From Pseudomonadota bacterium (lineage in GTDB: Bacteria; Pseudomonadota; Gammaproteobacteria; Burkholderiales; SG8-39), in contig JAJZPQ010000006.1 in assembly GCA_021811085.1 (NCBI GenBank), forward strand, positions 4,914 through 68,913: a stretch of DNA of 64,000 bases, read 5' to 3'. Position 1 is the stretch's first letter. Each line of letters begins with the position of its first letter. The notes under the pieces were generated by a model, which saw nothing but the letters and a program-made list of their open reading frames with translations, did no database searches and was not told where the DNA came from. This document shows positions 31,314 through 60,210 of the stretch, piece by piece. Position numbers and translations under genes: made by a program.

Positions 31314-31334
31314 CATTTAAGGGAGTCCACCGCA

Positions 31335-31380
31335 GAAACTTCCAACCGTGAGCCGCCAAAGCACACGAAAAGGGAGTTTC
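31335..31380 (+). promoter_or_regulatory. stem-loop sequestering the tnpA Shine-Dalgarno sequence
   Basis: GAAACTTCC (31335-31343) pairs with GGGAGTTTC (31372-31380) over 9 bp including one G-U. The 3' arm contains the SD just upstream of the ATG at 31384. Salmonella IS200 is known to occlude its RBS in the same way. Confidence 0.55.
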
Positions 31381-31383
31381 GCG

Positions 31384-32992: not shown

Positions 32993-33092
32993 GGCCTGCC
33001 CTGGTTATCTGTCTTTCGTGGTCGATATCAGTTTCAGGTTTGACTGCTGCATCCGATCCTGGCGTGCGTGACTCCCGCTTGCGCGGGGATGA

Positions 33093-33743: not shown

Positions 33744-34885
33744 TCGAGTTCCATGACTGTCTCGGCAAGCCGCGCGACCTGCGCCTCGGTATGCGCCGCC
33801 GAAAGCGTGATGCGCAGGCGCGCCGTGCCGTCCGGCACCGTCGGCGGACGGATGCCCGGCACCCAGATGCCGCGCGCGAAGAGCCGGCTTGCCACATCCA
33901 TCGTTTCCGCGTTCTCCCCGATCAGCAGCGGGTGGATGGCGGTTTCAGACGGCAGCAGCTGCCAGCGCTTGAGTTTCATTGAACTGTGCAGCAGTGCGTT
34001 CAGACGGGCGAGATGGCCGCGGCGCTCATTGCCCTGCTCGATGAGGTCAATGCTCTTTAGCAGTGCGTGGGCGATGAGCGCGGGCTCACCGGTGCTGAAG
34101 ATGTAGGTGCGCGCTTTTTGCAGTATCCACTCGATGGCCTCCTGCGTCCCGGCGGCGAAGGCGCCGGCCGCGCCGGCCGCCTTGCCCAGCGTGCCCATGT
34201 AGATCAGGCGCGGCGAGGCAAGACCGAAATGCGCGGCGGCGCCGCGGCCCTGTGGCCCGAGCAGACCGAAGCCGTGGGCGTCGTCCACCAGCAGCCAGGC
34301 GTCGTGCCGCTCGGCGAGGGCGAGCAGGTCCGACAGTGGCGCGAGGTCGCCGTCCATGCTGAATACGGACTCCGTGATGACCAGCTTGCGCCGCGCATGC
34401 GCTGCGGCCAGCCCGCGTTCCAGCGCCGCCAGGTCGAGGTGGGGGTAGATGTTGAGGTCGGCGTGGGACAGGCGTGCAGCGTCGATCAGCGAGGCGTGAT
34501 TGAGCCGGTCGCAGAAGAGGGCGTCGCCGCGCCCGGCAAGCGCCGGCACGATTCCCAGGTTGGCCATGTAACCGGTGGAGAACAGCAGCGCGCGCTCCAT
34601 GCCCGTAAATTCGGCCAGGCGACGCTCCAGCGCAGCGTGCGGCCTCACGTGGCCGTTGATGAGCGGCGAGGCGCCCGAGCCGACGCCGTAGAGCCGGGCG
34701 CCTTCCTGCGCCGCTGCGACCAGCGCGGGGTCGTTTGCCAGGCCGAGGTAGTCGTTGCTGCAGAAGGCCAGCGCCGGGCGGCCGTCGACGATGAGTTCCG
34801 GTGCGCAGGGCGAATCGAGGACGCGCCGCCGGCGCCGCAGCGCCAGCGCATCGAGTTCGGCGAGCTCCGCGTCGAAATCGCTCAT
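33740..34885 (-). CDS. bioF: 8-amino-7-oxononanoate synthase
   Basis: [37 protein letters not shown] (PLP Lys). The ATG at 34885 is in frame inside the 805-aa track ORF. There are 4-nt overlaps with both bioA and bioD. Confidence 0.9.
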
Positions 34886-36198
34886 GGCAGCACGTCGTCC
34901 AGCGCGGCCTGCGTGCCGGCGACGAGCAGCTCGATCTCGTCGCCGCCGATCACGTAGGGCGGCATAAAATACACGGTGTTGCCGATCGGGCGCAGCAGCA
35001 GGCCGCGCGCCAGCGCTGCCTGGTGGAAGCGGCGTGCGAAGAGCGGGTCGTCGGTGGCGGCATCGAAGGCCCAGATCATGCCGGTGTTGCGGAAGTGGCG
35101 CACGCGCGGATCGGCGGCGAGCGCCGCCGCCCGCTCGTTCAGTCGCGCGGCGGTGCGGCGATTGGCATCGATCACATCGTCTTCCTCGAAGATCGTCAGC
35201 GTGGCCAGGGCGGCGCGGCAGGCGAGCGGATTCCCGGTATAGGAATGCGAATGCAGGAAGCCGCGCGTGGAGCTGTCGTCGTAGAAGGCGGCATATACGG
35301 CGTCGGTAGTCAGCACCACCGAGAGCGGCAGGGTGCCACCGCTGATGCCCTTGGACAGGCACAGGAAGTCCGGCATGATGCCGGCCTGCTCGCAGGCGAA
35401 GAACGTGCCGGTGCGCCCGCAGCCGACGGCGATCTCGTCGGCGATGAGGTGCACGCCGTAGTGCTCGCACAGGGCGCGTGCCCGGCGCAGGTATTCCGAG
35501 TCGTACATGGCCATGCCGGTGGCGCATTGCACCAGCGGCTCGACGATGAACGCTGCCGTCTCGGCGTGGTGCTCGGCGAGATGGGCCTCCAGCGCCGCGG
35601 CGGCGACCAGCGCCGCGTCGCGCGGCGACTGACCCGGCGCCGCGTGCCGCCAGTCGGGGCTGGGCACCGTGGCACCAGCGCGCAACAACGGGGCGTAGAC
35701 GTCGCTGAAGAGGGCTACGTCGGTCACCGCCAGCGCGCCGAGGGTTTCGCCATGGTAGCTGCCAGTGAGGCTGAGGAAGCGGGTCTTCTGCGGCCGGCCG
35801 CTGTTGTGCCAGAAATGGAAGCTCATCTTCAGCGCGATTTCCACCGCCGAAGCGCCGTCCGAGGCGTAAAAGCAGTGGCCGAGCGCATGGCCGGTCAGCG
35901 CCGAGAGCTTTTCCGACAGCTCCACCACCGGCATGTGGGTGAAGCCGGCCAGCATGACGTGGTCGAGTTGTTCGAACTGCTCGCGCAATGCGGCGTTGAT
36001 GCGCGGGTTCGCGTGCCCAAACAGGTTCACCCACCAGGAGCTGATGGCGTCGAGGATGCGGCGTCCGTCGAAATCCTCCAGCCAGACACCCTGTGCTCGG
36101 CGGATGGGCACCAACGGAAGGATTTCGTGCAGCTTCATCTGTGTGCACGGGTGCCACACCGCAGCGAGACTGCGCTCCAGTAGCGATTGGTTGTTCAT
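34882..36198 (-). CDS. bioA: adenosylmethionine-8-amino-7-oxononanoate aminotransferase
   Basis: Class III aminotransferase with WHPCTQM, GSYHGETLGALAV, and DEIAVGCGRTG..LCLSKGISGG (PLP Lys). Confidence 0.9.
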   Translation of the reverse strand: MNNQSLLERSLAAVWHPCTQMKLHEILPLVPIRRAQGVWLEDFDGRRILDAISSWWVNLFGHANPRINAALREQFEQLDHVMLAGFTHMPVVELSEKLSALTGHALGHCFYASDGASAVEIALKMSFHFWHNSGRPQKTRFLSLTGSYHGETLGALAVTDVALFSDVYAPLLRAGATVPSPDWRHAAPGQSPRDAALVAAAALEAHLAEHHAETAAFIVEPLVQCATGMAMYDSEYLRRARALCEHYGVHLIADEIAVGCGRTGTFFACEQAGIMPDFLCLSKGISGGTLPLSVVLTTDAVYAAFYDDSSTRGFLHSHSYTGNPLACRAALATLTIFEEDDVIDANRRTAARLNERAAALAADPRVRHFRNTGMIWAFDAATDDPLFARRFHQAALARGLLLRPIGNTVYFMPPYVIGGDEIELLVAGTQAALDDVLP

Positions 36199-36365
36199 CG
36201 TCTAAGGCCGACTTTACGGCGGCGTGCTTTCTGAGGCGTCAATTCCGGCAAGCCGAATGCGGTGCTGACGTTGGTCAGCGCCAATAAGGAAAAGCATATC
36301 ACCATCAATCACCCTCGAGCCGAAGCGATTGCAGGGCCGCGCCGCCAAGTGCGTGACGGGCGCAA

Positions 36366-37373
36366 CTAGAACGGATGCATGCCCAGCTTCGCGAGCAGGA
36401 CGCGATCCTTCTCCGTTTCGGGGTTGCCGGTGGTAAGGAGTTTTTCTCCATAAAAAATCGAGTTTGCCCCGGCAAAAAAACATAGTGCCTGCACCGCTTC
36501 GGGCATCTCTTGGCGGCCGGCCGAAAGCCTCACCATGGCCTTCGGCATGCTGATGCGCGCCACAGCGATGGTGCGCACGAATTCGAGGGGATCGAGTGCT
36601 TCGGTGCCGTGCAGCGGTGTGCCTTCCACTTGCACCAGATTATTGATGGGCACCGACTCGGGGTAGGGGTCGAGGTTCGCAAGCTGCGCCACCAGACCCG
36701 CGCGCAGCCGGCGCGATTCGCCCATGCCGACAATACCGCCGCAGCAGACGTGAAGTCCCGCATCGCGCACTTTTTCCAGCGTGTCCAACCGATCCTGGTA
36801 TTCGCGGGTGGTGATGATGTCGCCGTAGAACTCGGGCGCGGTATCCAGGTTGTGGTTGTAATAATCGAGTCCCGCCTGCTTCAGCTGCTCGGCTTGTCCC
36901 TCCTTGAGCATGCCAAGGGTGGCGCAGGTCTCCAGTCCCAGCGCGCGCACCGCCGCGATCATCTCGGCAACCTTGTCCAAGTCCTTTTGCTTGGGGCCGC
37001 GCCAGGCCGCACCCATGCAGAACCGGCTTGCGCCCTGTTCTTTGGCCGCGCGCGCCGCGCCCACCACTTCTTCCAGCGTCAGCAGGTCTTGGTTTGCAAT
37101 GCCGGCGTCGTGGCGCGCGGATTGCGGGCAGTAACCACAATCCTCGGAACAGCCGCCAGTCTTGATCGAGAGCAAGGTCGAGAGCTGCACCGCGTTGGGG
37201 TCGTGGTAATGCCGGTGTACCTGGTGTGCGCGGTGCAGGAGATCGCTGAATGGCAGATCAAACAGGGATTGCAACTCGAACACCGTCCATTTTTCTATCT
37301 GCGCCTTGTCAACGTCGGCGACTGGCTTCACGGCAGAGGGTTGATCGTGCTCGGCGATAGCGACGGGATTCAT
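36366..37373 (-). CDS. bioB: biotin synthase (radical SAM)
   Basis: [11 protein letters not shown] is the CxxxCxxC motif. YNHNLDT and GGIVGMGES are also present. Confidence 0.95.
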
Positions 37374-37720
37374 TGATGTCCTTTCATTTTGTCGTGGGTC
37401 CGCAGCTCTGCGGTCCGCATTTATCTTTATCCGGGTCGACGCCCTCTAGTGAGGCAATAAATGCGCCGTAACGGAGTCATAAAGTTGACTGAATTTGCCT
37501 CATATTTAATAGTATGAAAACAAGATTGTCAACAAATAGTTTGCGCTACTCTTTAGTTGGATAGAATGCCGAGCGGCAGAGTAAAAACATAATTGAAACA
37601 TGCAATAATGATATTATTAGCAAGCCAATGTCGCTCCGACAGGCGGCAGTTGGCTGACGGACGCAGCTAATTGAAATTAGCATAATATATCTATATAAAT
37701 GTGTTGCGCAAATTTAATTG

Positions 37721-37750
37721 TTGACAAAAATGTCAACTGTTGTTTATAGT
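37721..37750 (+). promoter_or_regulatory. candidate sigma70 promoter embedded in an 18-bp palindrome upstream of the GntR gene
   Basis: TTGACA (37721-26), an 18-nt spacer, then TATAGT (37745-50). The -35 element is part of the perfect palindrome GTTGACA-AAAA-TGTCAAC (37720-37737). Confidence 0.45.
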
Positions 37751-37844: not shown

Positions 37845-38552
37845 ATGGCGACGCGGTTGAAAAAGGCGGTCCAGGTTGAGCAACGCCCCGGAGCAAAGGG
37901 CGGTCCTCACGGCAAACGCGGGATCGATCTGCAAAAGGTGTTGCGCGAACGCATCGCGAAGCAAGAGATTGCCCCCGGAAGCAAATTGCGGGAACAAGAG
38001 CTTTCCACAGAATTCGGCGTGCCGCGCGCCCTCGTGCGCGAAACACTTTGCGCCCTGGAACAGCGCGGTTTGATCGAGCGTATTCCCAACCGCGGCGCAG
38101 TGGTCGTTCGTCTCGATTTGTCCCAGGTGTTCGAAATTTACGACTTGCGCGAAGTGCTGGAGGGACTGTGTGCGCGGCTGGCCGCCCAGAATACGTCGCC
38201 CGAATCCTGGCAGGACATGGTCGACATGTTCGAAGGACCAATGGAGGAGTACGTAAAGCGAGGCGATTATGAGTCGTTTCTTGCGGGCTACGCAGTATTT
38301 CGTCGACGGCTGATCGAGGCGGCGGCCAATCCGGTACTCGCCGACATGCTGGACAGCATCTACGAAAAGACCCAAGCCATCATCCGCCGCATCATTATTC
38401 TGCCGGGGCGTGCGGAACAAGGACTCTCGGAACATCGGGCAGTGCTCGCGGCAGTGTGCCGTGGCGATGCCGAGGCAGCCGAGCGCTTGCGGCGAGAGAA
38501 CATGCGCAGCGGCAAGGATTACCTCAAGCGATATCAAAGTTTCGTACTGTAG
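37845..38552 (+). CDS. GntR family (FadR/FCD-type) transcriptional regulator
   Basis: LREQELSTEFGVPRALVRETLCALEQRGLIERIPNRGAVV forms the wHTH, followed by a helical FCD-like domain. A GGAGG RBS lies at 37836-40. Confidence 0.85.
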   Translation: MATRLKKAVQVEQRPGAKGGPHGKRGIDLQKVLRERIAKQEIAPGSKLREQELSTEFGVPRALVRETLCALEQRGLIERIPNRGAVVVRLDLSQVFEIYDLREVLEGLCARLAAQNTSPESWQDMVDMFEGPMEEYVKRGDYESFLAGYAVFRRRLIEAAANPVLADMLDSIYEKTQAIIRRIIILPGRAEQGLSEHRAVLAAVCRGDAEAAERLRRENMRSGKDYLKRYQSFVL

Positions 38553-38628
38553 GGCATAGGCACAGTTCCCCGGCAGACGCGAATTTGGCCAACACGGACA
38601 CCACAGTTTGAAACCGAGGCAAAAAAAC

Positions 38629-39894
38629 ATGAATGAAATTTCGCCCGGCGGCCCATTGTCCGGCTACCGGGTGCTCGAGATGGGTTCCACCGTGGCCGGA
38701 CCGTTTTGCGGACGGCTTCTCGCGGATTTTGGCGCGGAGGTGATTAAGGTGGAGCCGTTCGAAGGAGATGCCGTGCGCACGATGGGCAAGCGTTTTCATG
38801 GGAAATCGCTGTATGCGGCGAGCATTTTCAGAAACAAGTCGCTGATCTCGGTGGATTTGCGCAAGCGCGAAGGCCAGGAAATCATCAGGAAGATTGTCAC
38901 CAAGTGTGACCTTGTGGTGGAGAATTTTCGCCCGGGAGGCTTGGAAAAATGGAGCTTGGGATACGCAGATCTCTCACACCTCAACCCGGGGATCATCATG
39001 GTGCGCATCAGCGGCTTCGGTCAAACTGGCCCTTACAGCCAGCGTGCCGGTTACGGTGTGATCGGCGAGGCAGTCAGCGGCCTGCGCCATATCACCGGTG
39101 ATCCGGATCGCCCACCTAGCCGAGCTGCGGTGTCGATCACCGACTACATTACCGGCTTATACGGTGCTTTCGGTGCGGTCATGGCATTGCTTGCTCGCGC
39201 CAAGACCGGGCGGGGGCAGTACATCGACACCGCGCTCTACGAATGTGCTTTCAGCTTTATGGAGCCGCACGTCCCCGCATATGAAAAGCTTGGGCACGTC
39301 GCCATGCGCGCCGGCTCGCGACTGCCTGACAGCACGCCGAATAATCTGTACGTGACCCGCGACCGGCAATTCATTCATATCACGGCGATGGGCGATGCCG
39401 TGTTCAAGCGCCTGACGGCTTGCATGGGCCAGTCCGAACTGTTCGATGACCCGCGTTTTGGCGACCCGGTCGAGCGTTCCCGTCACGACCAGGATCTCGA
39501 CGACATCATTACGCGCTGGACCGAAAGCCACGACCTCGCTGAACTGGAAAGTGTGCTGAATGCGGCGGCGGTACCTGCAACGCGCGTTTTCACCATGGCT
39601 GACATTTTCAGAGATCCCCAATACCAGGCGCGCGAAATGCTCGCGCAAGCACCCGATGACGACCTGGGCACGGTAGCTATGACGGCGCCGGTGCCACGAT
39701 TGTCGGAGACCCCTGGCAGCATCCGCCACGCCGGCAAGCGCATCGGGCAGGACACGCGCCGGGTACTTTCCGAAATTGCAGGACTGTCCGCCGGGGAGCT
39801 GGACCAACTCGAGACCGCACGCGTGATTTTCAGTGACCGAGGGCTATCGGGGCAGATTGCCACTCCCGTCGGAGCGTGGGCGGGTGCAGCGTGA
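38629..39894 (+). CDS. CoA-transferase family III (CaiB/BaiF-type)
   Basis: GPLSGYRVLEMGSTVAGPFCGRLLADFGAEVIKVEP..NFRPGGLEKWSLGY..ISGFGQTGPY. Confidence 0.85.
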   Translation: MNEISPGGPLSGYRVLEMGSTVAGPFCGRLLADFGAEVIKVEPFEGDAVRTMGKRFHGKSLYAASIFRNKSLISVDLRKREGQEIIRKIVTKCDLVVENFRPGGLEKWSLGYADLSHLNPGIIMVRISGFGQTGPYSQRAGYGVIGEAVSGLRHITGDPDRPPSRAAVSITDYITGLYGAFGAVMALLARAKTGRGQYIDTALYECAFSFMEPHVPAYEKLGHVAMRAGSRLPDSTPNNLYVTRDRQFIHITAMGDAVFKRLTACMGQSELFDDPRFGDPVERSRHDQDLDDIITRWTESHDLAELESVLNAAAVPATRVFTMADIFRDPQYQAREMLAQAPDDDLGTVAMTAPVPRLSETPGSIRHAGKRIGQDTRRVLSEIAGLSAGELDQLETARVIFSDRGLSGQIATPVGAWAGAA

Positions 39895-39996
39895 GGAGGA
39901 TCGCTACCTGCAGTCGCGACGAGGGGCCGTGCGCCGCCTATGTATCTGAACAGACGGCCGCATATCAGTCGCAATGGGACCAACGAGGACGACATC

Positions 39997-41532
39997 ATGG
40001 CGTTTGAAGAACTATTGATCGAATACGAAGAACGGCGCGCAAAAGCGATTGCGATGGGCGGATCCGAGAAATTGGAGAAGCGGCGCGCAGCAGGACTGCT
40101 CAATGCGCGCGAGCGCATCGAGTACCTGGTGGACCCGGGCAGTTTCATGGAGTCGGGACTGTTCGGGACTTCGGCAGCGTATGAGCACGACCGCGAAAAG
40201 ACACCGGCTGATGGAAAGGTGGCGGGCTACGCGCGTCTCGGCGGCCGCGACATAGCAGTCATCTCCAATGATTTTACCGTCAAGGGCGCCTCCAGCAGCG
40301 CAACTAACGGCAGGAAGATCGGCCAGATGAAACGCGTTGCGATCCAGCGTGGTCTACCGTTGGTGTTTCTGGGCGAGTCCTCCGGGGCACGCATGCCTGA
40401 CACCATGGGCTCGCGCGGCATGGGCACCATGCTTGGCAACGACCCCACGCAGTACCGGCGCATGCGCGAAACGCCCTGGGCCGGCGCGGTGCTGGGTTTG
40501 TGCTACGGTTCCTCGACTTGGTACACCGGCTATTCCGATTTCAGCGTGATGCGCAAGGGCGCCATCATGGCCGTATCCAGCCCGCAGCTCGTGTCGCTCG
40601 CGATCAGGGAAAAAGTGGATCCGGAAGAAATCGGAGGATGGAAGCTTCACAGCGAGGTGACCGGGCTTATCGACCAGGTGGTGGACACCGACGAAGAGGC
40701 GCTCGACGCGATCAAGAAGTTTCTGTCCTACATGCCGGCCCACCACAACGAGGCGCCGCCCGTGCATCCGGTGCCTGCTGGATCGGGCGAGGGCATGCAG
40801 GACATCGTGAACCTGCTGCCGCCCAAGCGCACCCAGGTATACGACGTGCGCAAGATCATCAAAACCATCGTTGACCGCGACAGCTACTTCGAACTCAAGC
40901 CGCGCTTTGGCAAAGTGGCGGTGACCGCTCTCGCGAGGATCAATGGCCGCAGCGTCGGCATCATCGCCAACAATCCTTTGTTCAAGGGCGGAGCGCTGGA
41001 CTCGGACGGGTGCGATAAAGCCACCAGCCTTACCGTCATGTGCGACTCATTCAACATCCCGATTGTCATGCTCGTGGATACGCCCGGATTCATCATCGGC
41101 CTCGATGCAGAGCGCAAACGCGCGCCAGGCAAGATCGTGAATTTCATGGGCGCGCTGTCGCTGGTGACGGTGCCCAAGCTGACGATCGTCCTGCGCAAGA
41201 GCTACGGCCAAGCTTATCTCAACATGGGCGGGGGGCGCAATTCCGACGAGTTTGCGGCCTGGCCCACGGCCGAAATCAGCTTCATGGATCCGAACTTCGC
41301 CGCCAGCATCGTGCATGGACTCAATCCGGGCGACCCCGGCTACGAGGAAGCCGTTGCGGAAATGGCGCGCGGCAACAGCGTCTGGGACATTGCGTCGATG
41401 TATGCGGTGCAATCGGTGGTTTTGCCGAGCGAGACGCGCAATTACCTTATCCGCATGCTGGAGGTGCATCAATCGCGTCTATCTAACGGCGTGGGCGAAC
41501 ACCTGATGCGCACTTGGCCGACCACTTTCTGA
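39997..41532 (+). CDS. acyl-CoA carboxylase carboxyltransferase subunit (12S/PccB-type), paralog A
   Basis: GLLNARERIEYLVDPGSFMESG..DFTVKGASSS..GIIANNPLFKGGALD..LVDTPGFIIG. Length is 511 aa. Confidence 0.85.
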   Translation: MAFEELLIEYEERRAKAIAMGGSEKLEKRRAAGLLNARERIEYLVDPGSFMESGLFGTSAAYEHDREKTPADGKVAGYARLGGRDIAVISNDFTVKGASSSATNGRKIGQMKRVAIQRGLPLVFLGESSGARMPDTMGSRGMGTMLGNDPTQYRRMRETPWAGAVLGLCYGSSTWYTGYSDFSVMRKGAIMAVSSPQLVSLAIREKVDPEEIGGWKLHSEVTGLIDQVVDTDEEALDAIKKFLSYMPAHHNEAPPVHPVPAGSGEGMQDIVNLLPPKRTQVYDVRKIIKTIVDRDSYFELKPRFGKVAVTALARINGRSVGIIANNPLFKGGALDSDGCDKATSLTVMCDSFNIPIVMLVDTPGFIIGLDAERKRAPGKIVNFMGALSLVTVPKLTIVLRKSYGQAYLNMGGGRNSDEFAAWPTAEISFMDPNFAASIVHGLNPGDPGYEEAVAEMARGNSVWDIASMYAVQSVVLPSETRNYLIRMLEVHQSRLSNGVGEHLMRTWPTTF

Positions 41533-41541
41533 GGGATGCGC

Positions 41542-42882
41542 ATGTTCGATAGAGTCGTCGTCGCCAATCGCGGAGCTGTCGCCGCCCGGGTCCTGCGCGC
41601 GCTCAACGCTATGCGCATCCATTCGATCGCGGTGTATTCGGAGGCTGATGCTGGCGCGCCCTACCTTGAACTCGCCAGTGAGACCCACGCGATCGGCCCG
41701 GCGTCCCCGCGCGAAAGCTACCTCAATCAGGAGACTCTGCTCGATATTTTCCGGCGCTCGCGCGCGGACGCAATGCATCCGGGCTACGGTTTTCTCTCGG
41801 AGAACGCCGGATTTGCGACTCGGGTGGAGTCTGCGGGCACGCGTTTCATCGGACCGGCGCCGCGCTGGATCGAGGCGATGGGACACAAGACCCGTGCCCG
41901 CGCCCTCGCCCGAGAGTACGGACTGCCAGTGGGCAGCGGATCTGACATCCTACCCGCGGACAAGGACATTGTCGCCGCTGCGGCAAGGCGCATCGGCTTT
42001 CCCGTGTTGGTCAAACCGGCGGCCGGCGGCGGCGGCATCGGTATGCTGCCGGCCTACGACGAGACTCAACTGGTCGAGGCAGTGGAGCGCGCGCGCTCCA
42101 TGGCGCAGCGCGGTTTCGCCAATGCCGAGGTGTATTTGGAAAAGCTGCTGACGCGACCACGCCACATCGAATTTCAAGTGCTGGGGGACCATTTCGGCTC
42201 GGTCCGACATCTGTTCGAGCGCGACTGCTCGGTGCAGCGCCGCCATCAGAAGGTGATCGAGGAAGCACCCGCACCGCTCGTCGAGCGCAATCAGATCGAA
42301 GGCCTTGCCGACAGCGTTGCGGCGATCTTGCAGAAAATGGGCTACGACAATATCGGAACGGTAGAAATGCTCATGGGAGCCGACGGCTCGTTTTCCTTTC
42401 TCGAGATGAACACCCGCCTCCAGGTCGAGCACGGCGTGACCGAGGAAGTCACCGGCGTCGACCTGGTTCAGGCACAGATCCGGTCGGCCGCGGGCGAAAG
42501 GCTGGAGACAATTTTGCCTGCGCACATTAAATTGGACGGTCACGCCATCCAGGCGCGAGTATACGCCGAGGACCCCAAGCGTTTTTTCCCATCGCCGGGG
42601 AAACTCAATGTATTCCGTCCCCCGGTGGATCCCAGCGTACGCATCGAGACTGGCTACGTCGAGGGCCGCGACGTGACGCCGCACTACGACCCGCTCCTGG
42701 CCAAGGTGATCGTGCACGCGCCGACGCGCGAGGCGGCGATCGGGCGTCTGTGCGATGCGCTCGAGGAGTTCGCGATCGAGGGCGTGAAGAACAATATCCC
42801 GGCGCTGCTGACGATTTTGCATTCGGCGCCTTTCCGCGCAGGGCAGGTTCATACCGGGATCGTGGCGGAAGTGATTTCCTGA
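41542..42882 (+). CDS. biotin carboxylase (stand-alone ATP-grasp BC subunit)
   Basis: MFDRVVVANRGAVAARVLRA..HPGYGFLSEN..KPAAGGGGIGM..FLEMNTRLQVEHGVTE. No fused BCCP. An ATG at 41536 is an alternative start. Confidence 0.9.
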   Translation: MFDRVVVANRGAVAARVLRALNAMRIHSIAVYSEADAGAPYLELASETHAIGPASPRESYLNQETLLDIFRRSRADAMHPGYGFLSENAGFATRVESAGTRFIGPAPRWIEAMGHKTRARALAREYGLPVGSGSDILPADKDIVAAAARRIGFPVLVKPAAGGGGIGMLPAYDETQLVEAVERARSMAQRGFANAEVYLEKLLTRPRHIEFQVLGDHFGSVRHLFERDCSVQRRHQKVIEEAPAPLVERNQIEGLADSVAAILQKMGYDNIGTVEMLMGADGSFSFLEMNTRLQVEHGVTEEVTGVDLVQAQIRSAAGERLETILPAHIKLDGHAIQARVYAEDPKRFFPSPGKLNVFRPPVDPSVRIETGYVEGRDVTPHYDPLLAKVIVHAPTREAAIGRLCDALEEFAIEGVKNNIPALLTILHSAPFRAGQVHTGIVAEVIS

Positions 42883-42918
42883 TCCCGTATCACCTAATAC
42901 ACATGGAGAACAAGCAAA

Positions 42919-43140
42919 ATGGCGACAGTGGAACTTAAGTCCGAGGTGACCGGAGCGGTCTGGCAGATCAAGAAGCAGCCGGGCGAGGTTGTCGCCGAAG
43001 GGGACATCGTTATGATTTTGGAGTCGATGAAGATGGAGATTCCAGTGATAGCGGAACAAGGGGGCACGCTCAAGGAACTGGTCGTGAAAGAGGGCGAGCC
43101 TGTGGCCGAGGGCCAGACCGTTGCGATCCTCGAAACCTAA
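42919..43140 (+). CDS. minimal biotin carboxyl carrier protein (biotinyl domain only, 73 aa)
   Basis: VMILESMKMEIPV carries the MKM biotinylation motif, with the Lys codon at 43030-43032. There is no N-terminal or linker region. Confidence 0.8.
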   Translation: MATVELKSEVTGAVWQIKKQPGEVVAEGDIVMILESMKMEIPVIAEQGGTLKELVVKEGEPVAEGQTVAILET

Positions 43141-43188
43141 CCCGGTATATCGGCGCTGTTTCATATCCAACTCTTCAAGGGTAATTAA

Positions 43189-44751
43189 ATGACGTGGTTA
43201 CCGGAAGCAGAAGAAATCGCATTGCGCCGCAAATGGGCGGAAGAACTGGGCGGGAAGGAGGCCATCGCCCGTCATCACGCACAGGGGCGACTTACGGTGC
43301 GCGAGCGAATTGGCGGCCTCGTGGATGCCGGTTCGTTCCAGGAAGTCGGCAAGCTGACCGGAAACGGCACTTACGTCGACGGCCAAGTCACAAAAGTGAC
43401 GCCGGCCCCTTACGTAATGGGGCTCGCCAGTGTCGACGGACGGTCAGTTGCAATAGGCGGCGAAGATTTTACCGTGCGCGGCGGCACCAGTTGGGGCGGT
43501 GATCGACGCAAAGGTGGTCAGGGCGGCTTCGTCGAGGACCTGGCTGCGCGGTATCGCATTCCATTGATCAATCTGATCGACGGCGCCGGCGGCACCGTAA
43601 CCTCGGCAAAGCGACGCGGCCACACTGTGTTCCCCGGCGTGGACGGGTACGAGCGCGCGGTGCAGTTGCTGGGAACGGTGCCGGTGGTCAGCGCGGTCAT
43701 GGGAACGGCGGCCGGCGGCCCGGCCGGGCGGGCGATACTGTCCCACTGGTCGGTGATGGTAAAGGGCTCGAGCCAGATTTTTGCTGCGGGTCCACCGGTC
43801 GTTGAACGCTCCTTGGGGCAAAAGGTGAGCAAGGATGAACTCGGTGGAACCCGGATGGCGGTTGACACTGCCGGCACCGTAGACAATGCGGCCGAAAGTG
43901 AGGAAGACGCCTTTCGTCTGATTCGGCGTTTTCTCAGCTACATGCCGCAGAACGTGTGGGAGCTGCCACCGGTTACGAGTTGCGATGATCCGGTGGACCG
44001 CCGCGAAGAGGCGCTGCTTAATCTGGTGCCGCGGGAGAGGCGGCAGCCGTACAACATGAAGAAACTGATCGAAATGGTGGCCGACCGGGGCTCGATATTC
44101 GAGATTCAACCTACTTTTGGCCGCGCCGTGATCACCTGCCTCGCGCGCATGAACGGAAAGGCAGTCGGCATCATCGCCAACAACCCCATGGTCTATGGTG
44201 GCGCAATGGACGTCAGGGCGGCGCGAAAGCAGATCCACTTCATCGAGTTGTGCGACACATTTCATATACCGCTCATTTTTCTTGTGGATCTGCCCGGGTT
44301 CATGGTTGGCATGCAGGCAGAGGCCGCGGCCACCTTGCGCGATGGCATGCGCGCCGTGTACGTAGGGCTGCAGGCAAGCGTGCCGATTCTCACCTTGGTG
44401 ATCCGCAAGTGCTACGGCATGGCAGGCATGGGCACGACCGACAAGAACGGTCTGGATTTCAAGATCGCCTGGCCATCGGCCGAATGGGGCTCGTTGCCGG
44501 TCGAAGGTGGTGTGGCGGCAGCGTTCAAGCGCGAGATTCAGAATGCTACAGATCCGGCGCAGCGACAAAAGGAGCTTGAGGAAGAGTTGCGCGAGTTGGA
44601 TTCGCCTTTTCTCACCGCCGAAGCGTTTGGCGTGGAGGACATCATCGATCCGCGCGAAACCCGACGCTATCTGTGCCGCTTCATTGACTTGGCGCAGGGG
44701 CGGCTCAAGACGGAAGTCGGCGTCAAACTGAAGACGGGTGTGCGCCCCTAA
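43189..44751 (+). CDS. acyl-CoA carboxylase carboxyltransferase subunit (12S/PccB-type), paralog B
   Basis: QGRLTVRERIGGLVDAGSFQEVG..DFTVRGGTS..GIIANNPMVYGGAMD..LVDLPGFMVG..WPSAEWGSLP. Length is 520 aa. Confidence 0.9.
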   Translation: MTWLPEAEEIALRRKWAEELGGKEAIARHHAQGRLTVRERIGGLVDAGSFQEVGKLTGNGTYVDGQVTKVTPAPYVMGLASVDGRSVAIGGEDFTVRGGTSWGGDRRKGGQGGFVEDLAARYRIPLINLIDGAGGTVTSAKRRGHTVFPGVDGYERAVQLLGTVPVVSAVMGTAAGGPAGRAILSHWSVMVKGSSQIFAAGPPVVERSLGQKVSKDELGGTRMAVDTAGTVDNAAESEEDAFRLIRRFLSYMPQNVWELPPVTSCDDPVDRREEALLNLVPRERRQPYNMKKLIEMVADRGSIFEIQPTFGRAVITCLARMNGKAVGIIANNPMVYGGAMDVRAARKQIHFIELCDTFHIPLIFLVDLPGFMVGMQAEAAATLRDGMRAVYVGLQASVPILTLVIRKCYGMAGMGTTDKNGLDFKIAWPSAEWGSLPVEGGVAAAFKREIQNATDPAQRQKELEEELRELDSPFLTAEAFGVEDIIDPRETRRYLCRFIDLAQGRLKTEVGVKLKTGVRP

Positions 44752-44924: not shown

Positions 44925-45935
44925 ATGAAATTTCCCAGATTGATTTCTTTGTTTTTCGTTGCGATTGTCACCCTCGCCGGAATGGCCGGAAATGCATCGG
45001 CTGAAGCGAGCGAAGTCAGGATCGCACTGCAGTTTGGTATTGGTTACTTGCCACTTACCGTAATGCAGCACGACAAGCTTATCGAAAAGCATCTCAAGGC
45101 TTCTGGCCTTGACAATACCAAAGTGGTTTGGTCAAAGACGGGTGCCGGGTCTGCGATGAACGATGCGTTGCTCGCAGGTCAATTGGACTTTGCCTCTGGC
45201 GGGATTCCGCCGTTTTTGCTGCTGTGGGGCAAGACTCGCGACAACCTTGACGTCAGGGGCGTGGGTGCATTGTGCTCGATGCCCAATTTCCTCAACACCA
45301 GCAATCCGAATATCAAATCGGTGAAGGATTTCACGGACAAGGACAGAATTGCGGTGGCCGGAGCTGGATCATCGGTTCAAACTGTTTATCTGCAGATGGC
45401 GGTTGCCAAGGCTTACGGGGACGCACACTATAACAAGCTCAACCCGATTATGGTAAAGCTATCCCATCCAGACGGCATGGTGGCGCTGCTATCGGGCCAG
45501 ACGATCGATGCCCAATTTACTTCGCCGCCGTTTCAGTACGAGGAGCTGGAACACCCTGGTATTCATAAGGTGCTTAGCTCATACGACGTAATGGAAGGGT
45601 CAAATAGTTTCCTCATGATGTGGGGTACGGGGAAATTCCGGAAGGAAAATCCGAAAACGTACCAAGCGGTCTTTGATGCCTTCAAGGAAGCCACCGAGTC
45701 GATTAATCAAGACAAAAAAAGAGCCGCCGAGATTTACGTAGAGAGTGTCAACGGAAAGGCCTCACTGGACAGTATCCTTAAGATGCTCAACGACCCGGAA
45801 ATCAAATATACCTTGGCGCCGGAAGGGATCATGCAATTCGTTCAGTTCATGAACAAAGTGGGTACCCTAAAGAGCAAGGCTGCGTCATGGAAGGATCTGT
45901 TTTTCCCCGAAGTCTATAACCTGCCTGGCAGCTAA
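44925..45935 (+). CDS. ABC transporter periplasmic substrate-binding protein (NMT1/NitT-TauT-like)
   Basis: Signal peptide MKFPRLISLFFVAIVTLAGMAGNASA. Length is 336 aa, and cognate ATPase and permease genes follow. Confidence 0.8.
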   Translation: MKFPRLISLFFVAIVTLAGMAGNASAEASEVRIALQFGIGYLPLTVMQHDKLIEKHLKASGLDNTKVVWSKTGAGSAMNDALLAGQLDFASGGIPPFLLLWGKTRDNLDVRGVGALCSMPNFLNTSNPNIKSVKDFTDKDRIAVAGAGSSVQTVYLQMAVAKAYGDAHYNKLNPIMVKLSHPDGMVALLSGQTIDAQFTSPPFQYEELEHPGIHKVLSSYDVMEGSNSFLMMWGTGKFRKENPKTYQAVFDAFKEATESINQDKKRAAEIYVESVNGKASLDSILKMLNDPEIKYTLAPEGIMQFVQFMNKVGTLKSKAASWKDLFFPEVYNLPGS

Positions 45936-45955
45936 CTGCAGCGAGCTGTAGTTAG

Positions 45956-45997
45956 AAAGGCGGGTTCGCCAGAGTCCGCCTTTCGTGGCTTTTTTTC
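45956..45997 (+). terminator. intra-operon hairpin / partial terminator after the binding-protein gene
   Basis: AAAGGCGG-(12 nt)-CCGCCTTT gives an 8-bp stem. A T7 run follows at 45990-45997, displaced by 6 nt. Confidence 0.4.
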
Positions 45998-46026: not shown

Positions 46027-46824
46027 ATGGACGAGGACCAAGGCGCGCTGCCCTTACTAAGCGTAAGCGACGTCACTTTGCAGTATAAGACCAAGGAGCA
46101 CCTGGTGACCGCCACTTACCGGGTGAGCTTCCAGGTGTTCAAATCGGACCGCTATGTCCTGCTGGGGCCTTCGGGCTGCGGCAAGTCGACGCTGCTGAAA
46201 GCCGTGGGTGGCTATCTCACCCCGGTGGAAGGCGCTATCCGCCTGAAAGGCGAGACAGTCACCAAGCCCGGTCCGGACCGGATGATGGTGTTCCAGGAGT
46301 TCGACCAGTTGCTTCCCTGGAAGACGGTGAAGCAGAACGTCATGTTTGCTCTCGTTTCGAGCGGTAAATACAAGGGTAAGGCCGCTGAAGACAAGGCGAT
46401 GCACTGCATCGAGAAGGTGAACCTCACCAAGTTCGCCAACAGCTTCCCGCACACGCTCTCAGGAGGCATGAAGCAGCGCGTCGCCATCGCCCGGGGAATG
46501 GCGATGGAGCCTGACGTGCTCCTTATGGACGAACCCTTCGCAGCGCTCGATGCCTTGACGCGCCGCAAGATGCAGGAAGAGCTCTTGCAGCTCTGGGATG
46601 ACATCCATTTCACCGTATTGTTCGTGACCCACTCGATCCCCGAGGCGGTCAAGATTGGCAATCGCATCCTGCTGCTCTCCCCCCATCCCGGTCAGGTCAA
46701 GGCTGAGTTGAACAGTAGCGGGCGCGACGAAGAAGACCCGGTGACCGGCAAGCGGCTTTCCGACCGCATCCACAACATGCTGTTTGCCGACGAGATCGAA
46801 GAGGAAGAGGTGACCCATGTCTGA
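46027..46824 (+). CDS. ABC transporter ATP-binding protein (NitT/TauT family)
   Basis: Walker A GPSGCGKST, signature LSGGMKQRV and Walker B LLMDEPF. An AGAGGAG RBS lies 7 nt upstream of the ATG at 46027. Confidence 0.9.
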   Translation: MDEDQGALPLLSVSDVTLQYKTKEHLVTATYRVSFQVFKSDRYVLLGPSGCGKSTLLKAVGGYLTPVEGAIRLKGETVTKPGPDRMMVFQEFDQLLPWKTVKQNVMFALVSSGKYKGKAAEDKAMHCIEKVNLTKFANSFPHTLSGGMKQRVAIARGMAMEPDVLLMDEPFAALDALTRRKMQEELLQLWDDIHFTVLFVTHSIPEAVKIGNRILLLSPHPGQVKAELNSSGRDEEDPVTGKRLSDRIHNMLFADEIEEEEVTHV

Positions 46825-47686
46825 CTTACAAGTGCAACGCGCGGAGTTCGTGCGGGAACAGGTGGAAATGAGCGCGTTCGGCGTGGTGGAGAAGCCCCTC
46901 ACTGTCTGGGAGAAGGTCTTCAACCGGGACGAAGTGCGCAAGGGGCTCATCCTGGTGGCACTCGCCGTGATCTGGCAGGCCTACGCCGCCCACCTCAACA
47001 ACCCGCTACTTTTCCCCACCTTCAGTTCGACCATAGAGGCCCTGTGGGACCACATGGTGAACGGCAGCCTGCTCACCAAAGCGTGGTTCTCCATCAAGGT
47101 GCTGCTCATGGGTTACGCCGCAGGGGTCGTGCTGGCCACTTTGCTCACCATGGTCGCGATCACCTCCCGCCTGGGCAACGATTTTCTGGAAACACTGACC
47201 GCGATGTTCAACCCCCTGCCGGCCATAGCGCTGCTGCCCTTGTCCCTCATCTGGTTCGGGCTGGGCAACGGCAGCCTCATCTTCGTTCTGATCCACTCGG
47301 TGCTGTGGCCGGTAGCGCTGAACACTCACTCCGGGTTCATGTCGGTGTCCAACACCATGCGCATGGTTGGGAGAAACTACGGCCTTGGCGGGTTCCGCTA
47401 CGTTTCCAAGATCCTGATCCCGGCGGCGTTCCCCAACATTCTCGCGGGATTGAAGATCGGCTGGGCGTTCGCCTGGCGGACCTTGATTGCCGCCGAGCTC
47501 GTGTTCGGTGCGACCTCCGGGTCGGGGGGCTTGGGCTGGTTCATCTACGAGAACAAGAACGAGCTCGAAATCCCCAGCGTGTTCGCCGGGCTGTTCACCG
47601 TGATCCTCATCGGCCTCATCGTAGAGAACCTGATCTTTCGCAATATCGAGCACAGGACCGTGCGCAAGTGGGGAATGCAGAACTGA
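46817..47686 (+). CDS. ABC transporter permease (NitT/TauT family)
   Basis: 289 aa with 6 predicted TM segments and an EAA-like loop (WAFAWRTLIAAELV). Overlaps the ATPase stop by 8 nt. Confidence 0.85.
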   Translation: MSDLQVQRAEFVREQVEMSAFGVVEKPLTVWEKVFNRDEVRKGLILVALAVIWQAYAAHLNNPLLFPTFSSTIEALWDHMVNGSLLTKAWFSIKVLLMGYAAGVVLATLLTMVAITSRLGNDFLETLTAMFNPLPAIALLPLSLIWFGLGNGSLIFVLIHSVLWPVALNTHSGFMSVSNTMRMVGRNYGLGGFRYVSKILIPAAFPNILAGLKIGWAFAWRTLIAAELVFGATSGSGGLGWFIYENKNELEIPSVFAGLFTVILIGLIVENLIFRNIEHRTVRKWGMQN

Positions 47687-47806: not shown

Positions 47807-49876
47807 TTAATTGCGTGCCGGTTCAACGCCGGTATCAGCATGTCGCGGCTCTTGGCAAAGCATCGCGCCGCTTTCGTGCAATTTCACTGACCAGTTAGGC
47901 GGTACTACAGAGGTACCGCCTGCCTCTTCCACTATGGCGGGCCCGCTAAACGTGAACTCGGGCTCCAAGGCTTCGCGTAGGTAGACCGGACAGTCGACCC
48001 ACCCGTCGAACCACACGGAGCGCCGTTCGATCAGTGGCTTCCCGCCCTGCGCAGGCTTGTATTTGAGCTGTGGTTTGTCGACGTCGCCGAGGGAGACCAG
48101 GCGGATATTGACGATTTCCACGTCGTGTTCGACAGAGGAATAGCCGAAGTTCTCCTTATGGCGGGCATGAAATGCTTCGCGTAGTGGCGCCCAATCCCTG
48201 TCGGTGGGGTTCCATTCGATCGGAAGCGTAAACGACTGCCCGACGTAGCGAAGGTCGAGCGAGTACGTGTGGCGATGCCGGTGTACGGAGATGCCGTCAC
48301 CCAACAGGAGTTTCTCCGCCGATTCGCGCAGACAGGCGGCGCGTGCTTTCAACTCCTCAATGCCTAGAACGCTCAACTTTCCGCCAGAAGCAAGGACGAA
48401 ATCCCGGTGGATATCGGCCAGCATCTGGCCAAGTGCGCAAAGGTGGCCAGGTAAGCGGGGAATCATCACGCGCGCTATGCCCAGTTCCTCGGCGACATGG
48501 AAGATGTGCATCGGTCCCGCGCCACCATATCCGACCAAGGTAAAGTCCCGCGGATCGAATCCGCGGTGAACTGAGACCTCGCGCACTGCGCCGGCCATTT
48601 TCGTAACTGCGATGCGTAACGCGCCGTCGGCTAGTGCAACGATGTCCGGAACTCGCAATTCTTCGGCAATGTTGCGGAATGCCCGCTCGGCGTGTCCCTT
48701 GTCAAGCTTTAGACCGCCGCTGATTGGGCGCCGGGTGGGCAGCCGGCCGAGGATCAGGTTGGCATCCGAGATGGTCGGTTGGTTGCCGCCGCGACCATAG
48801 CAAGCCGGGCCAGGTACTGCACCGGCGCTTTGTGGGCCGATCTGGAGCGTTCCGTCTGCGCCGATCCAGATGATTGAGCCTCCTCCTGCACCGATGGCAT
48901 GGATGTCAAGCTGTGGCATCTGGAGCGGGTAGGCGTCGATCTGGTTGTCGTAGGACATGAGCGGTTTGAGTGCGTGCACGAGTGAAACATCGGTGCTTGT
49001 GCCCCCCATATCAAACGTGATGATGTTGGCAATTCCGGCAAGCTCGGCGACCCGAATTGCGCCGCTAACGCCGCCGACCGGCCCCGAGAGGAACGTGCCG
49101 GCCACACATTGCGAGGCCGCTTGCAGTGTCATCGCTCCGCCGTTGGAGCCCATGATGTTTACAGGTGCTACGACGCCGCGTTCTTTTAGCGCAGCAGTTA
49201 GGGTGCGGAGGTATTCCACCATCAGGGGCGTAAGATAGGCGTTCAGTACGCAAGTGGACGTACGCTCGAACTCTCCACGTTCGCGAACCAGCGCAACGGA
49301 CTGGGATATCGCAGCTTCGGGCATCAGTCTTTGCAATGCGGCAGCTGCCGCAGTTTCGTTAGTGTCGTTCATAAAGCTGTTGATGAACGCCACTGCGATT
49401 GACCGTATGCCCTTTCGGCGGAATTCATCGACGATCGGCACTAGTTCAGCTGCATCGATTTCGCGCTGGATCACGCCTGCAGCAGTCGCTCGTTCAGACA
49501 CCTCAAAGCGTAGATCTCGCGGCACGATCGGTGCCGGCCGTTGCCACACGATATCGAACAGACCTCCGATTAGCCGGCGTCCCTTGCCGATTTCAAGAAC
49601 GTCCCGGAAACCGCGCGTTGTGACCAGACCGGTTGGCGCTCCCTTGCGCTCGAGCAGTGCGTTCGTCGCGATAGTAGTGCCATGAACGAACGCCCGAATT
49701 GAATCCGGGGCGATGCCAAGCGCTGCCAATGCGTCGAGGACCCCTCGCCATTGCTCGCCGGGCAGCGAAGGGACCTTTGCGGCAAGAAGCTCTTGTTCTG
49801 CCGCGTTGAATGCCAGGACGTCCGTAAATGTGCCGCCGACATCGATTCCGACGAGATAAGTAGGACGAATCCCCAT
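47807..49876 (-). CDS. hyuA: hydantoinase/oxoprolinase family protein, A (HyuA-type) subunit
   Basis: YLVGIDVGGTFTDVLAF..FDMGGTSTDVSLV shows the ASKHA-fold ATPase motifs. Length is 689 aa. Confidence 0.9.
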   Translation of the reverse strand: MGIRPTYLVGIDVGGTFTDVLAFNAAEQELLAAKVPSLPGEQWRGVLDALAALGIAPDSIRAFVHGTTIATNALLERKGAPTGLVTTRGFRDVLEIGKGRRLIGGLFDIVWQRPAPIVPRDLRFEVSERATAAGVIQREIDAAELVPIVDEFRRKGIRSIAVAFINSFMNDTNETAAAAALQRLMPEAAISQSVALVRERGEFERTSTCVLNAYLTPLMVEYLRTLTAALKERGVVAPVNIMGSNGGAMTLQAASQCVAGTFLSGPVGGVSGAIRVAELAGIANIITFDMGGTSTDVSLVHALKPLMSYDNQIDAYPLQMPQLDIHAIGAGGGSIIWIGADGTLQIGPQSAGAVPGPACYGRGGNQPTISDANLILGRLPTRRPISGGLKLDKGHAERAFRNIAEELRVPDIVALADGALRIAVTKMAGAVREVSVHRGFDPRDFTLVGYGGAGPMHIFHVAEELGIARVMIPRLPGHLCALGQMLADIHRDFVLASGGKLSVLGIEELKARAACLRESAEKLLLGDGISVHRHRHTYSLDLRYVGQSFTLPIEWNPTDRDWAPLREAFHARHKENFGYSSVEHDVEIVNIRLVSLGDVDKPQLKYKPAQGGKPLIERRSVWFDGWVDCPVYLREALEPEFTFSGPAIVEEAGGTSVVPPNWSVKLHESGAMLCQEPRHADTGVEPARN

Positions 49877-49892
49877 AAAGAAGATGCTCTCT

Positions 49893-60197: not shown

Positions 60198-60210
60198 AGC
60201 GCCACAGCCT

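Follow-up and report, generated by a model that had tools for sequence, protein, structure and literature searches.

The stretch of DNA studied here (64,000 nucleotides, hereafter the window) was taken from contig JAJZPQ010000006.1 of the Burkholderiales assembly GCA_021811085.1, and it carries an operon that encodes the parts of a biotin-dependent carboxylase as separate polypeptides, together with two divergent carboxyltransferases (CTs) and a CoA-transferase. Six intact genes lie on the + strand in the following order: a 235-aa regulator of the GntR family that carries an FCD effector domain (37845-38552), a family III (CaiB/BaiF-type) CoA-transferase (421 aa, 38629-39894), a CT of the propionyl-CoA carboxylase (PCC) beta/12S type that we call CT-A (511 aa, 39997-41532), a stand-alone biotin carboxylase (BC; 446 aa, 41542-42882), a mini biotin carboxyl carrier protein (BCCP) made of a biotinyl domain only (73 aa, 42919-43140) and a second CT, CT-B, of the PCC/acetyl-CoA carboxylase (ACC) beta type (520 aa, 43189-44751). 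The gaps between successive genes are 76, 102, 9, 36 and 48 bp; no further gene was called between them, and gaps of at most 102 bp leave no room for one. All six genes appeared both in the open reading frame (ORF) listing and in a gene call made independently on the contig that contains the window (ENA ERZ27237050 k141_705512), so that the gene order, sizes, strand and ESMKME motif described in an earlier note on this DNA, written by a model from the letters alone, proved correct.

Domains were assigned by profile searches against Pfam and NCBIfam (release of June 2026) with curated cut-offs, which gave E-values from 1e-14 to 1e-152 for the six-gene set. Judged by sequence, the general parts of a biotin-dependent carboxylase (a BC, a biotinyl carrier and a CT of the 12S/PccB type) are all present. 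The BC contains the three BC domains at full length (Biotin_carb_N, CPSase_L_D2 and Biotin_carb_C), and its translation shows the motifs EMNTRLQVEH and RDCSVQRRHQK and a GGGG loop. It matches the AccC-type models of NCBIfam at 2e-152, with a score of 508 bits that falls under the cut-off of 597, and for this reason we regard it as a paralog of the housekeeping AccC. The BCCP (Biotin_lipoyl, 1.9e-15) reaches 75.8 bits against NF004547, 'biotin/lipoyl-binding carrier protein', for which the cut-off is 75, and its biotinylation is predicted from the ESMKME motif in the segment LESMKMEIPV. The regulator matches GntR at 3.6e-14 and FCD at 7.8e-26. The CoA-transferase matches CoA_transf_3 at full length (3.4e-116, profile positions 1-366 of 366); its top NCBIfam models are succinate-glutarate, oxalate and mesaconate CoA-transferases, the best at 262 bits against a cut-off of 750, and its closest solved structures are 4ed9, SUGCT and YfdE.

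The two CTs share 34% identity over 516 residues (260 bits), and both cover nearly the whole Carboxyl_trans profile (6.8e-92 for CT-A and 2.9e-99 for CT-B). The best PDB matches of CT-A were the PCC beta subunit 1vrg (2.7e-88) and the 12S subunit 1on3, and that of CT-B was the ACC beta subunit 7w5u (3.9e-91). Solved PCC/ACC beta and 12S subunits were matched by both CTs at 1e-78 to 1e-91, MCC/GCC-type subunits far more weakly, and GcdA most weakly of all. Because CT-A and CT-B are no closer to each other than to PCC, ACC and 12S enzymes, they represent old, separate lineages rather than a recent duplication. The sole NCBIfam model with a near-full-length match, of the MmdA type, gave scores of 324 and 344 bits where its cut-off is 999, and in the release searched no model reached its curated cut-off for CT-A, CT-B or the CoA-transferase.

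Both CTs are under strong purifying selection. Computed against the orthologs in two related loci (L004 and L005 in our numbering), the ratio of nonsynonymous to synonymous substitution rates (dN/dS) was 0.05-0.06 for CT-A and 0.045-0.05 for CT-B, the lowest values in an operon whose six genes all fell between 0.045 and 0.11. In alignments of 20 family members per CT, the active-site motifs GARMPD and YGQAYLNM were invariant in the CT-A family and AAGGPAGR and RKCYGMAGM in the CT-B family. We therefore reject a pseudogene or a degenerate scaffold for either CT, and propose from these motifs that both may be catalytically competent. It follows that the pairing of one catalytic with one scaffolding subunit, which the earlier note had offered as an option, is unlikely.

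Pocket positions were mapped onto the solved ScPccB and MePccB through pairwise alignments. ScPccB G182-G183 corresponds to G-S in CT-A and to G-G in CT-B, the oxyanion pair G419-A420 to Q-A and M-A, and Asp422 (MePccB Asp407), the position of propionyl specificity, to Leu and Met, respectively. The whole stretch from G419 to Asp422 reads Q-A-Y-L in CT-A and M-A-G-M in CT-B, each invariant within its own family. Neither CT thus carries the residues that mark a PccB equivalog (Asp422/Asp407 and the G419-A420 pair) and, since the Asp422 and Gly419 positions are replaced, we expect the handling of the substrate to differ in some way from that in a canonical PCC. A look into the acyl pocket, as had been proposed earlier, shows that the positions at which the two CTs deviate from canonical PCC are the same. 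We also considered a natural glycolyl-CoA carboxylase arising through Tyr143His in CT-B, and rejected it: the alignment with 6ybq puts this residue in an indel, the CT-B His aligns elsewhere, and the engineered enzyme and CT-B share only the hydrophobic residue at Asp407. A third CT-like ORF resembling CT-B (DGTGGGGS, VWPSGEWGSLPIAGG) lies at 120-1712 (+) of the window. In its listed form it extends 140 residues further at the N-terminus and seems to be missing about 120 residues of the C-domain core; either a degenerate paralog or a mis-called start may explain it.

We scanned one genome per species for relatives of CT-A, by which the loci were defined, and found them in 579 species genomes. 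The best 80 of the 579 belonged mostly to the Burkholderiales and allies, with a few Alphaproteobacteria (Xanthobacter, Reyranella and Hyphomicrobiaceae) and one Vicinamibacterales metagenome-assembled genome (MAG). Searches of the loci with the window proteins (tblastn) showed repeated recurrence of the order GntR-CoAT-CTA-(BC)-BCCP-CTB (CoAT, CoA-transferase), the kind of pattern for which the earlier note had recommended mining gene neighbourhoods, and the recurrence of this gene set across dozens of genomes shows that the six-gene arrangement is no chance juxtaposition. The regulator is syntenic in 57 of 83 loci at an identity of at least 55%. Presence of the other genes was counted in 46 loci with adequate flanks (4.7-10 kb upstream and 8-10 kb downstream), where the BCCP was found in 44, the CoA-transferase in 41, CT-B in 38 and the BC in 33 (72%). 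BC and CT-B occurred together in 26 of these loci, BC without CT-B in 7, CT-B without BC in 12 and neither in one, a co-presence no different from independence (Fisher p = 0.41). The dedicated CoA-transferase claimed earlier is thus a conserved member of the cluster, and its combination with a split BC, a mini-BCCP and two divergent PCC-beta-like CTs is real and recurrent. Annotated and plasmid records name the orthologs only generically, for example as 'carboxyl transferase domain-containing protein', and a full-text literature search, with most subscription-journal papers outside its reach, found no described ortholog set or substrate. The novelty asserted for the set has therefore stood up in the literature searched and in NCBIfam, which holds no equivalog for CT-A, CT-B or the transferase.

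The two CTs also occur apart from each other. CT-A clusters were found without CT-B in seven of the 46 loci (L007, L009, L011, L015, L018, L019 and L072), examples of this arrangement being those of Polynucleobacter nymphae (GntR-CoAT-CTA-BC-BCCP-TctC) and Ottowia sp. VDI28. In L092, a CT-B ortholog with 77% identity is accompanied only by a LysR regulator and a CoA-transferase, with no CT-A, BC or BCCP within 10 kb on either side, and a Variovorax plasmid carries two modules of CoAT and a CT-B-like gene beside one CT-A and one BCCP. The distance matrices of CT-A and CT-B gave r = 0.825, the highest among all gene pairs, a value that fits co-inheritance and is compatible with physical interaction, without being proof of it.

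Two further observations were made on these loci. In the CT-B-less clusters of the Polynucleobacter type (L088, 14152-14883; L007, L009, L010 and L011), the operon ends in TctC and a conserved soluble protein of 243 aa, which has no Pfam or NCBIfam match and shows a cupin-like HxH...E motif (PLHFHVQNQFQVFIEGSG). In addition, a betaproteobacterial-type cluster was found under a seemingly inconsistent label in L040 (JBNOAI010000007.1, titled Leptospira interrogans), and the labels of L033, L052 and L063 (Firmicutes or Enterobacteriaceae MAG titles) are likewise at odds with their gene content. The cluster in these four records is at 68-74% identity, and their odd taxonomic labels are likely a matter of contamination or mis-binning.

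The unit to which the six genes belong runs past 44751 on the same strand, through the genes of an ATP-binding cassette (ABC) importer to 47686, and this importer is syntenic in 24-26 loci. It consists of a periplasmic substrate-binding protein (SBP) with an NMT1/SsuA/TauA fold (336 aa, 44925-45935, +; Pfam NMT1_2 and NCBIfam SsuA_fam, both below cut-off), an ATPase of the NitT/TauT family (46027-46824, +; Pfam ABC_tran and, short of their cut-offs, NCBIfam TauB and NtrCD at about 1e-59) and a permease (46817-47686, +; Pfam BPD_transp_1, and NCBIfam SaoP, NtrB, SsuC and TauC, all below cut-off). A GC-rich 13-bp hairpin followed by a T-run (45955-45984, +) separates the genes of the SBP and the ATPase; taken from the hairpin list and folded as RNA at -36.3 kcal/mol (z = -2.76), it looks like a partial terminator or attenuator. 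At the other end of the unit, a promoter scan located a strong sigma-70-like promoter, TTGACA-18-TATAGT, with 11 of 12 matches (37721-37750, +), and the hairpin list a perfect palindrome, GTTGACAAAAATGTCAAC, that overlaps it (37720-37737, +). An exact copy of the palindrome core occurs once in the window and also upstream of the orthologous GntR gene in L005, and the palindrome is a probable operator of the GntR/FCD protein. The extent of 37845-44751 given in the earlier note was thus right as to the genes, and missed the operator region at 37720-37750, the importer and the recurrent accessory genes described below.

Among the loci the transporter varies while the enzymes stay the same: the NMT1/SsuA-type ABC importer (about 26 loci) is replaced elsewhere by TctC (23 loci), a second NMT1-type ABC importer, an MFS carrier or a TRAP system. 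Such swapping suggests the uptake of an external organic anion. The AlphaFold2 model of the SBP (pLDDT, the predicted confidence score, 89.6) had SsuA and TauA as its top Foldseek matches in the PDB, at a TM-score of about 0.65 and 15-19% identity; by this model the SBP is nearest to SsuA/TauA in fold, yet too distant from them for its ligand to be named.

The explanation that we favour, and hold to be the probable one if only just, is that of a substrate-inducible catabolic operon in which an acid is imported, activated with CoA and carboxylated by a split BC/BCCP system with separable CTs. The FCD-GntR protein would sit on the palindrome over the -35 box and keep the operon repressed until the pathway acid binds to the protein. 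The ABC importer (elsewhere TctC, MFS or TRAP) would bring in a small organic anion, and the family III CoA-transferase would make its CoA thioester without expense of ATP, the CoA donor being most likely succinyl-CoA or the carboxylated product. The BC would spend ATP to carboxylate the biotin on the free 73-aa BCCP, and the PCC-beta-type CTs might then transfer the CO2 from this carrier to a short acyl-CoA, at its alpha-carbon. CT-A, as the constant element, is the better candidate for the core transferase, and CT-B would be a separable second transferase sharing BC and BCCP, its most likely task being either another acyl-CoA or a further step of the pathway. ATP- and bicarbonate-dependent carboxylation of an acyl-CoA is predicted, with only indirect support from the conserved CoA-transferase in the operon.

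Four points weigh against this explanation. The conserved core contains no enzyme that would consume the product, be it a mutase, epimerase, hydratase, lyase or reductase, so that the pathway is incomplete as read. About a quarter of the adequately flanked loci (12 of 46) have no BC inside the flanks, and ATP-dependent carboxylation would there need a BC in trans. We know of no docking element for BC or CT in the 73-aa BCCP, which leaves the assembly of the enzyme unexplained. Finally, the CT-A/CT-B distance correlation fits physical co-evolution as well as co-inheritance. The alternatives considered below overlap in part with the catabolic operon of separable CTs, because some address the assembly of the enzyme and others its substrate.

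The alternative that survives best concerns assembly. A single holoenzyme with a hybrid CT-A/CT-B hetero-hexamer as its core and two kinds of active site, like the mycobacterial (AccD4)2(AccD5)4, is a serious possibility, though on balance we tend to doubt it. It has a structural precedent (PMC13012033, PMC13612425), and it agrees with the co-encoding of both CTs in 38 of the 46 loci, with the retention of both the BCCP-CTB and the CTA-BC adjacencies and with the top rank of the CT-A/CT-B correlation, although co-inheritance alone could yield the latter. It is harder to reconcile with the seven CT-A clusters devoid of CT-B, with the solitary CT-B ortholog of L092 and with the two CoAT and CT-B-like modules per one CT-A in Variovorax; moreover, the epsilon-like subunit and the fused alpha subunit that organise the mycobacterial hybrid are not encoded in the operon. 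Since CT-A is found without CT-B, and CT-B with only a regulator and a CoA-transferase, an obligate hetero-oligomer is not required. The hetero-oligomeric CT core of the earlier note is thus possible in the light of AccD4/AccD5, and as an obligatory arrangement it was not borne out.

On the side of the substrate, an ordinary split PCC (or acetyl/propionyl-CoA carboxylase) for propionate or C3 units, with the CoA recycled from succinyl-CoA, seems unlikely to us. PCC and ACC beta subunits are indeed the best solved relatives of both CTs, the hydrophobic residue at the site of PccB Asp422 is as in ACC-type or relaxed-specificity variants, and relatives of the CTs adjoin genes whose pathways have propionate or propionyl-CoA as their end product (Dml/DmdAB-like genes in L092, and a MaoC hydratase with a CoA-ester lyase in Sulfitobacter L086). 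On the other hand, a methylmalonyl-CoA epimerase or mutase occupies no conserved position, the MmdA-type model reaches only about one third of its cut-off, and the family-invariant replacement of Gly419 by Gln in CT-A and Met in CT-B was seen in no solved PCC compared. Propionate alone would also leave the dedicated high-affinity transporters and the two CTs unexplained. In L092, genes of the ICL/PEP-mutase family, for the large and small subunits of an aconitase, and of the PrpD and TauD families lie near the LysR-CoAT-CTB group (14147-19862), and in L091 a glutamate-mutase-type B12 set (GlmE-like protein, B12-binding subunit and MutL-like protein) directly follows CT-B (11653-15225). A link of the carboxylase to glutamate-mutase-like or dimethylmalate-pathway genes was considered and, these being single loci, was not generalised. 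MaoC-type hydratases are also found within the orthologous clusters of Cupriavidus plasmids.

We give about the same low probability to a role in breaking down a C2-C3 acid that bears a sulfonate or sulfinate group (3-sulfopropionate or sulfoacetate, for instance). In this reading the sulfo-acid would be activated by the CoA-transferase, and the carboxylase would act on the sulfo-thioester or on the acyl-CoA remaining after desulfonation. The likeness of the SBP model to SsuA and TauA, which bind alkanesulfonates and taurine, points this way, as do several neighbours of the cluster. TauE/SafE-family exporter genes lie immediately after it in 5 loci and TauE-like genes within 10 kb in about 4 more, and SuyAB-like two-subunit lyases (SAF small and UxaA-type large subunits) were found in L006, L008, L062, L073 and L080. 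The window itself contains an Xsc/ALS-like thiamine pyrophosphate (TPP) enzyme (55048-56745, +; NCBIfam sulfoacetaldehyde acetyltransferase, 441 bits against 620) and a GMC oxidoreductase (56742-58367, +; choline-dehydrogenase subfamily, 548 bits against 605), both probable accessories of uncertain membership. Orthologs of the TPP enzyme adjoin the carboxylase cluster in 9 other loci and those of the GMC dehydrogenase in 8, in varied arrangements, and they share an operon with the carboxylase genes in L059 and L062. Bacterial breakdown of 3-sulfopropionate and 3-hydroxypropanesulfonate is unreported except in a thesis, and a TauE homolog has been proposed as the exporter of 3-sulfopropionate (PMC11489063). 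Nevertheless, every sulfonate-type assignment scores below its curated cut-off, the same families also act on non-sulfur substrates, and such genes are present in only about a quarter of the loci. No chemically necessary carboxylation step could be written into the known desulfonation routes, and no paper linking a carboxylase with sulfonate catabolism was found in the literature search. Because the assignments lie below cut-off and we could write no known desulfonation route that needs a carboxylation, organosulfonate or other substituted-acid catabolism is a lead and not a result; the same holds for hydroxy-acid catabolism, at which the recurrent neighbours may also hint.

The TPP and GMC genes are preceded by a divergent FCD-GntR regulator gene (54221-54955, -), and the intergenic region between this second GntR gene and the TPP gene carries the palindrome ATGTCGACAT. 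In L059, L075 and L078, orthologs of the second GntR protein (56-60% identical) are encoded upstream of the carboxylase operon in divergent orientation. The closest solved relative of the TPP enzyme is 'BbmA' (8x3x).

A further proposal joins assembly and substrate: the CTA-BCCP-CTB core would be a new type of biotin machine whose two 12S-type CTs pass CO2 between two acyl-CoAs through the free mini-BCCP, with the BC as an optional ATP-driven input, in an uncharted aerobic route for a C2-C3 organosulfonate or related substituted acid, e.g. 3-sulfopropionate. We consider it improbable. Least probable of all is an ATP-independent acyl-CoA:acyl-CoA transcarboxylase, in which one of the 12S-type CTs would load the mini-BCCP by decarboxylating a donor such as (methyl)malonyl-CoA, its counterpart would carboxylate the acceptor and the BC would only prime or supplement the system, for while CTA-BCCP-CTB stands without BC inside the flanks in 12 of the 46 loci, the BCCP is a bare 1.3S-like carrier and both BC and CT-B are missing from one locus only, the BC/CT-B pattern matches independence, the BC is kept in 72% of loci, including all seven clusters without CT-B, a housekeeping AccC could supply the BC-less loci, and no transcarboxylase is known to be built from two 12S-type subunits. 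The constant presence of either BC or CT-B was tried as a transcarboxylase signature and found no support in the counts (26, 7, 12 and 1), and a model that obliges either BC or CT-B to feed the carrier gains no statistical support from the Fisher result.

The operon was also compared with described enzymes. The long-chain acyl-CoA carboxylase of mycobacteria (LCC) has, by cryo-EM, a hybrid (AccD4)2(AccD5)4 core with two specificities (PMC13012033, PMC13612425). Like it, the window combines two divergent PCC-beta-type CT paralogs with one biotin carboxylase system, and its CTs match the LCC chains in the PDB at about 230-257 bits. However, BC and BCCP are fused in the mycobacterial AccA3 and an epsilon subunit (AccE) serves as a tether, whereas the window has separate ORFs for BC and BCCP and no epsilon-like ORF; moreover, the LCC is a biosynthetic enzyme (mycolic acids) of Actinobacteria with no operonic CoA-transferase, regulator or transporter, in contrast to the catabolic, proteobacterial context found here. 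In full-length alignment, the closest solved relatives of the CTs are ScPccB, MePccB, the Thermotoga protein 1vrg, the Chloroflexus-type ACC beta 7w5u and the 12S subunit. Even so, the identity to PCC/ACC beta is only about 35-40%, NCBIfam scores are about one third of the subfamily cut-off, Gly419 and Asp422 are replaced, and the partner in the window is not a fused alpha subunit; the oxyanion pair G182-G183 is kept in CT-B and is G-S in CT-A.

Bacterial biotin carboxylases whose BCCP, CT and BC are separate products of a catabolic cluster have been described as HpeCBA/XccBCA in Rhodococcus and Aromatoleum (PMC9618137). By their description, on which the comparison was made, these differ from the window in having a single CT, a phosphorylated aryl methyl ketone instead of an acyl-CoA as substrate and no prior CoA-transferase. 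The archaeal-type acetyl/propionyl-CoA carboxylase (Metallosphaera/Sulfolobales) is also fully split, into AccC, AccB and a 12S-type CT, PccB, and the Sulfolobus CT 1x0u is among the top PDB matches of the window CTs; unlike the window, it has one CT and a longer BCCP, serves autotrophic CO2 fixation and is associated with no CoA-transferase or importer. The methylmalonyl-CoA:pyruvate transcarboxylase of Propionibacterium (12S, 5S and 1.3S subunits) shares with the window a 12S-type CT and a small free carrier, but the 73-aa BCCP contains no counterpart of the N-terminal anchor of the 1.3S subunit, and the window operon has a BC and two 12S-type CTs and no 5S subunit, the 5S-type CT with a BCCP located 16 kb downstream (60211-62196) belonging to another cluster. 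Lastly, no membrane beta subunit of a Na+-pumping decarboxylase (Mmd/Gcd/Oad) was found in the operon or among its recurrent neighbours, where the membrane proteins are transporter components and TauE-like proteins only. The generalisation of the earlier note that characterised bacterial carboxylases fuse BC with BCCP and use a single CT has exceptions, namely HpeCBA/XccBCA (PMC9618137) and the LCC (PMC13012033, PMC13612425).

The carboxylase operon lies next to genes of biotin synthesis. A divergent bioB-A-F-D-C operon (32288-37373) begins with bioB (36366-37373, -; Pfam Radical_SAM and BATS); it is complete (bioB-bioA-bioF-bioD-bioC) and is separated from the carboxylase operon by a 470-bp AT-rich spacer. 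A naive ORF list merges its bioA and bioF into a single ORF of 805 aa. Adjacency of bioB to the cluster was found in 7 loci, where it takes at least three forms, as well as in Pandoraea L090; in L032 the cluster sits between bioB and bioFDA, and in a Sulfitobacter relative bioY stands beside the BC/BCCP genes. Such adjacency fits a high biotin demand, and we read bioB and bioY as genes that supply the cofactor to a biotin enzyme expressed at a high level. A role of the carboxylase in the synthesis of a biotin precursor was rejected, since no chemistry joins a one-carbon carboxylation to pimeloyl synthesis and bioY suits cofactor supply better.

Other modules of the window were also recorded. 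A second biotin-enzyme cluster with no BC of its own (58710-63863, +) comprises an MmgE/PrpD-family gene (58710-60197), an AccB-like BCCP of 164 aa (60211-60705), a CT of the 5S/OadA/PycB type without a biotin domain of its own (60706-62196) and TRAP components DctP/DctQ; in L028 a homologous BCCP-BC-5S-CT set lies directly 3' of CT-B, in one operon. Convergent with the importer, a module at 47807-53369 (-) encodes a class III aminotransferase together with caprolactamase-like subunits A and B of a hydantoinase, which score 505 and 269 bits where the cut-off is 1000; from these matches it looks like a module for ATP-dependent lactam opening and omega-amino-acid metabolism, and elsewhere it is not syntenic with the carboxylase cluster, save for weak HyuAB matches in L043. 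In the region of about 29436-31815 (+) lies a group II intron, with an Rfam D1-D4 match at 29436-29657 (183 bits) and a reverse transcriptase ORF at 29483-31240. The gene of an IS200-type Y1 transposase comes after it, immediately before the bio operon.

Biotin-dependent carboxylases form a small and well-mapped set, in which each new assignment has exposed a new catabolic or CO2-fixing route. The operon described here is compact and strongly conserved, its roughly 580 host species being Betaproteobacteria common in soil and freshwater along with some Alphaproteobacteria, and its subunit plan (a free BC, a 73-residue carrier and two PCC-beta-like CTs with altered pockets) matches no characterised enzyme. 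The altered pocket, with Gln/Met at the oxyanion Gly and Leu/Met at the PCC Asp, is of interest for the engineering of carboxylases toward new substrates, and the system is experimentally tractable in cultured carriers, among them Paraburkholderia phymatum, Xanthobacter tagetidis DSM 11602, Ottowia thiooxydans DSM 14619, Polynucleobacter nymphae and Cupriavidus necator N-1 (pBB2). Solving the operon would add a pathway for an environmental organic acid, would test for hybrid CT cores outside the Actinobacteria and would show how a carrier without a docking domain is shared among its partners.

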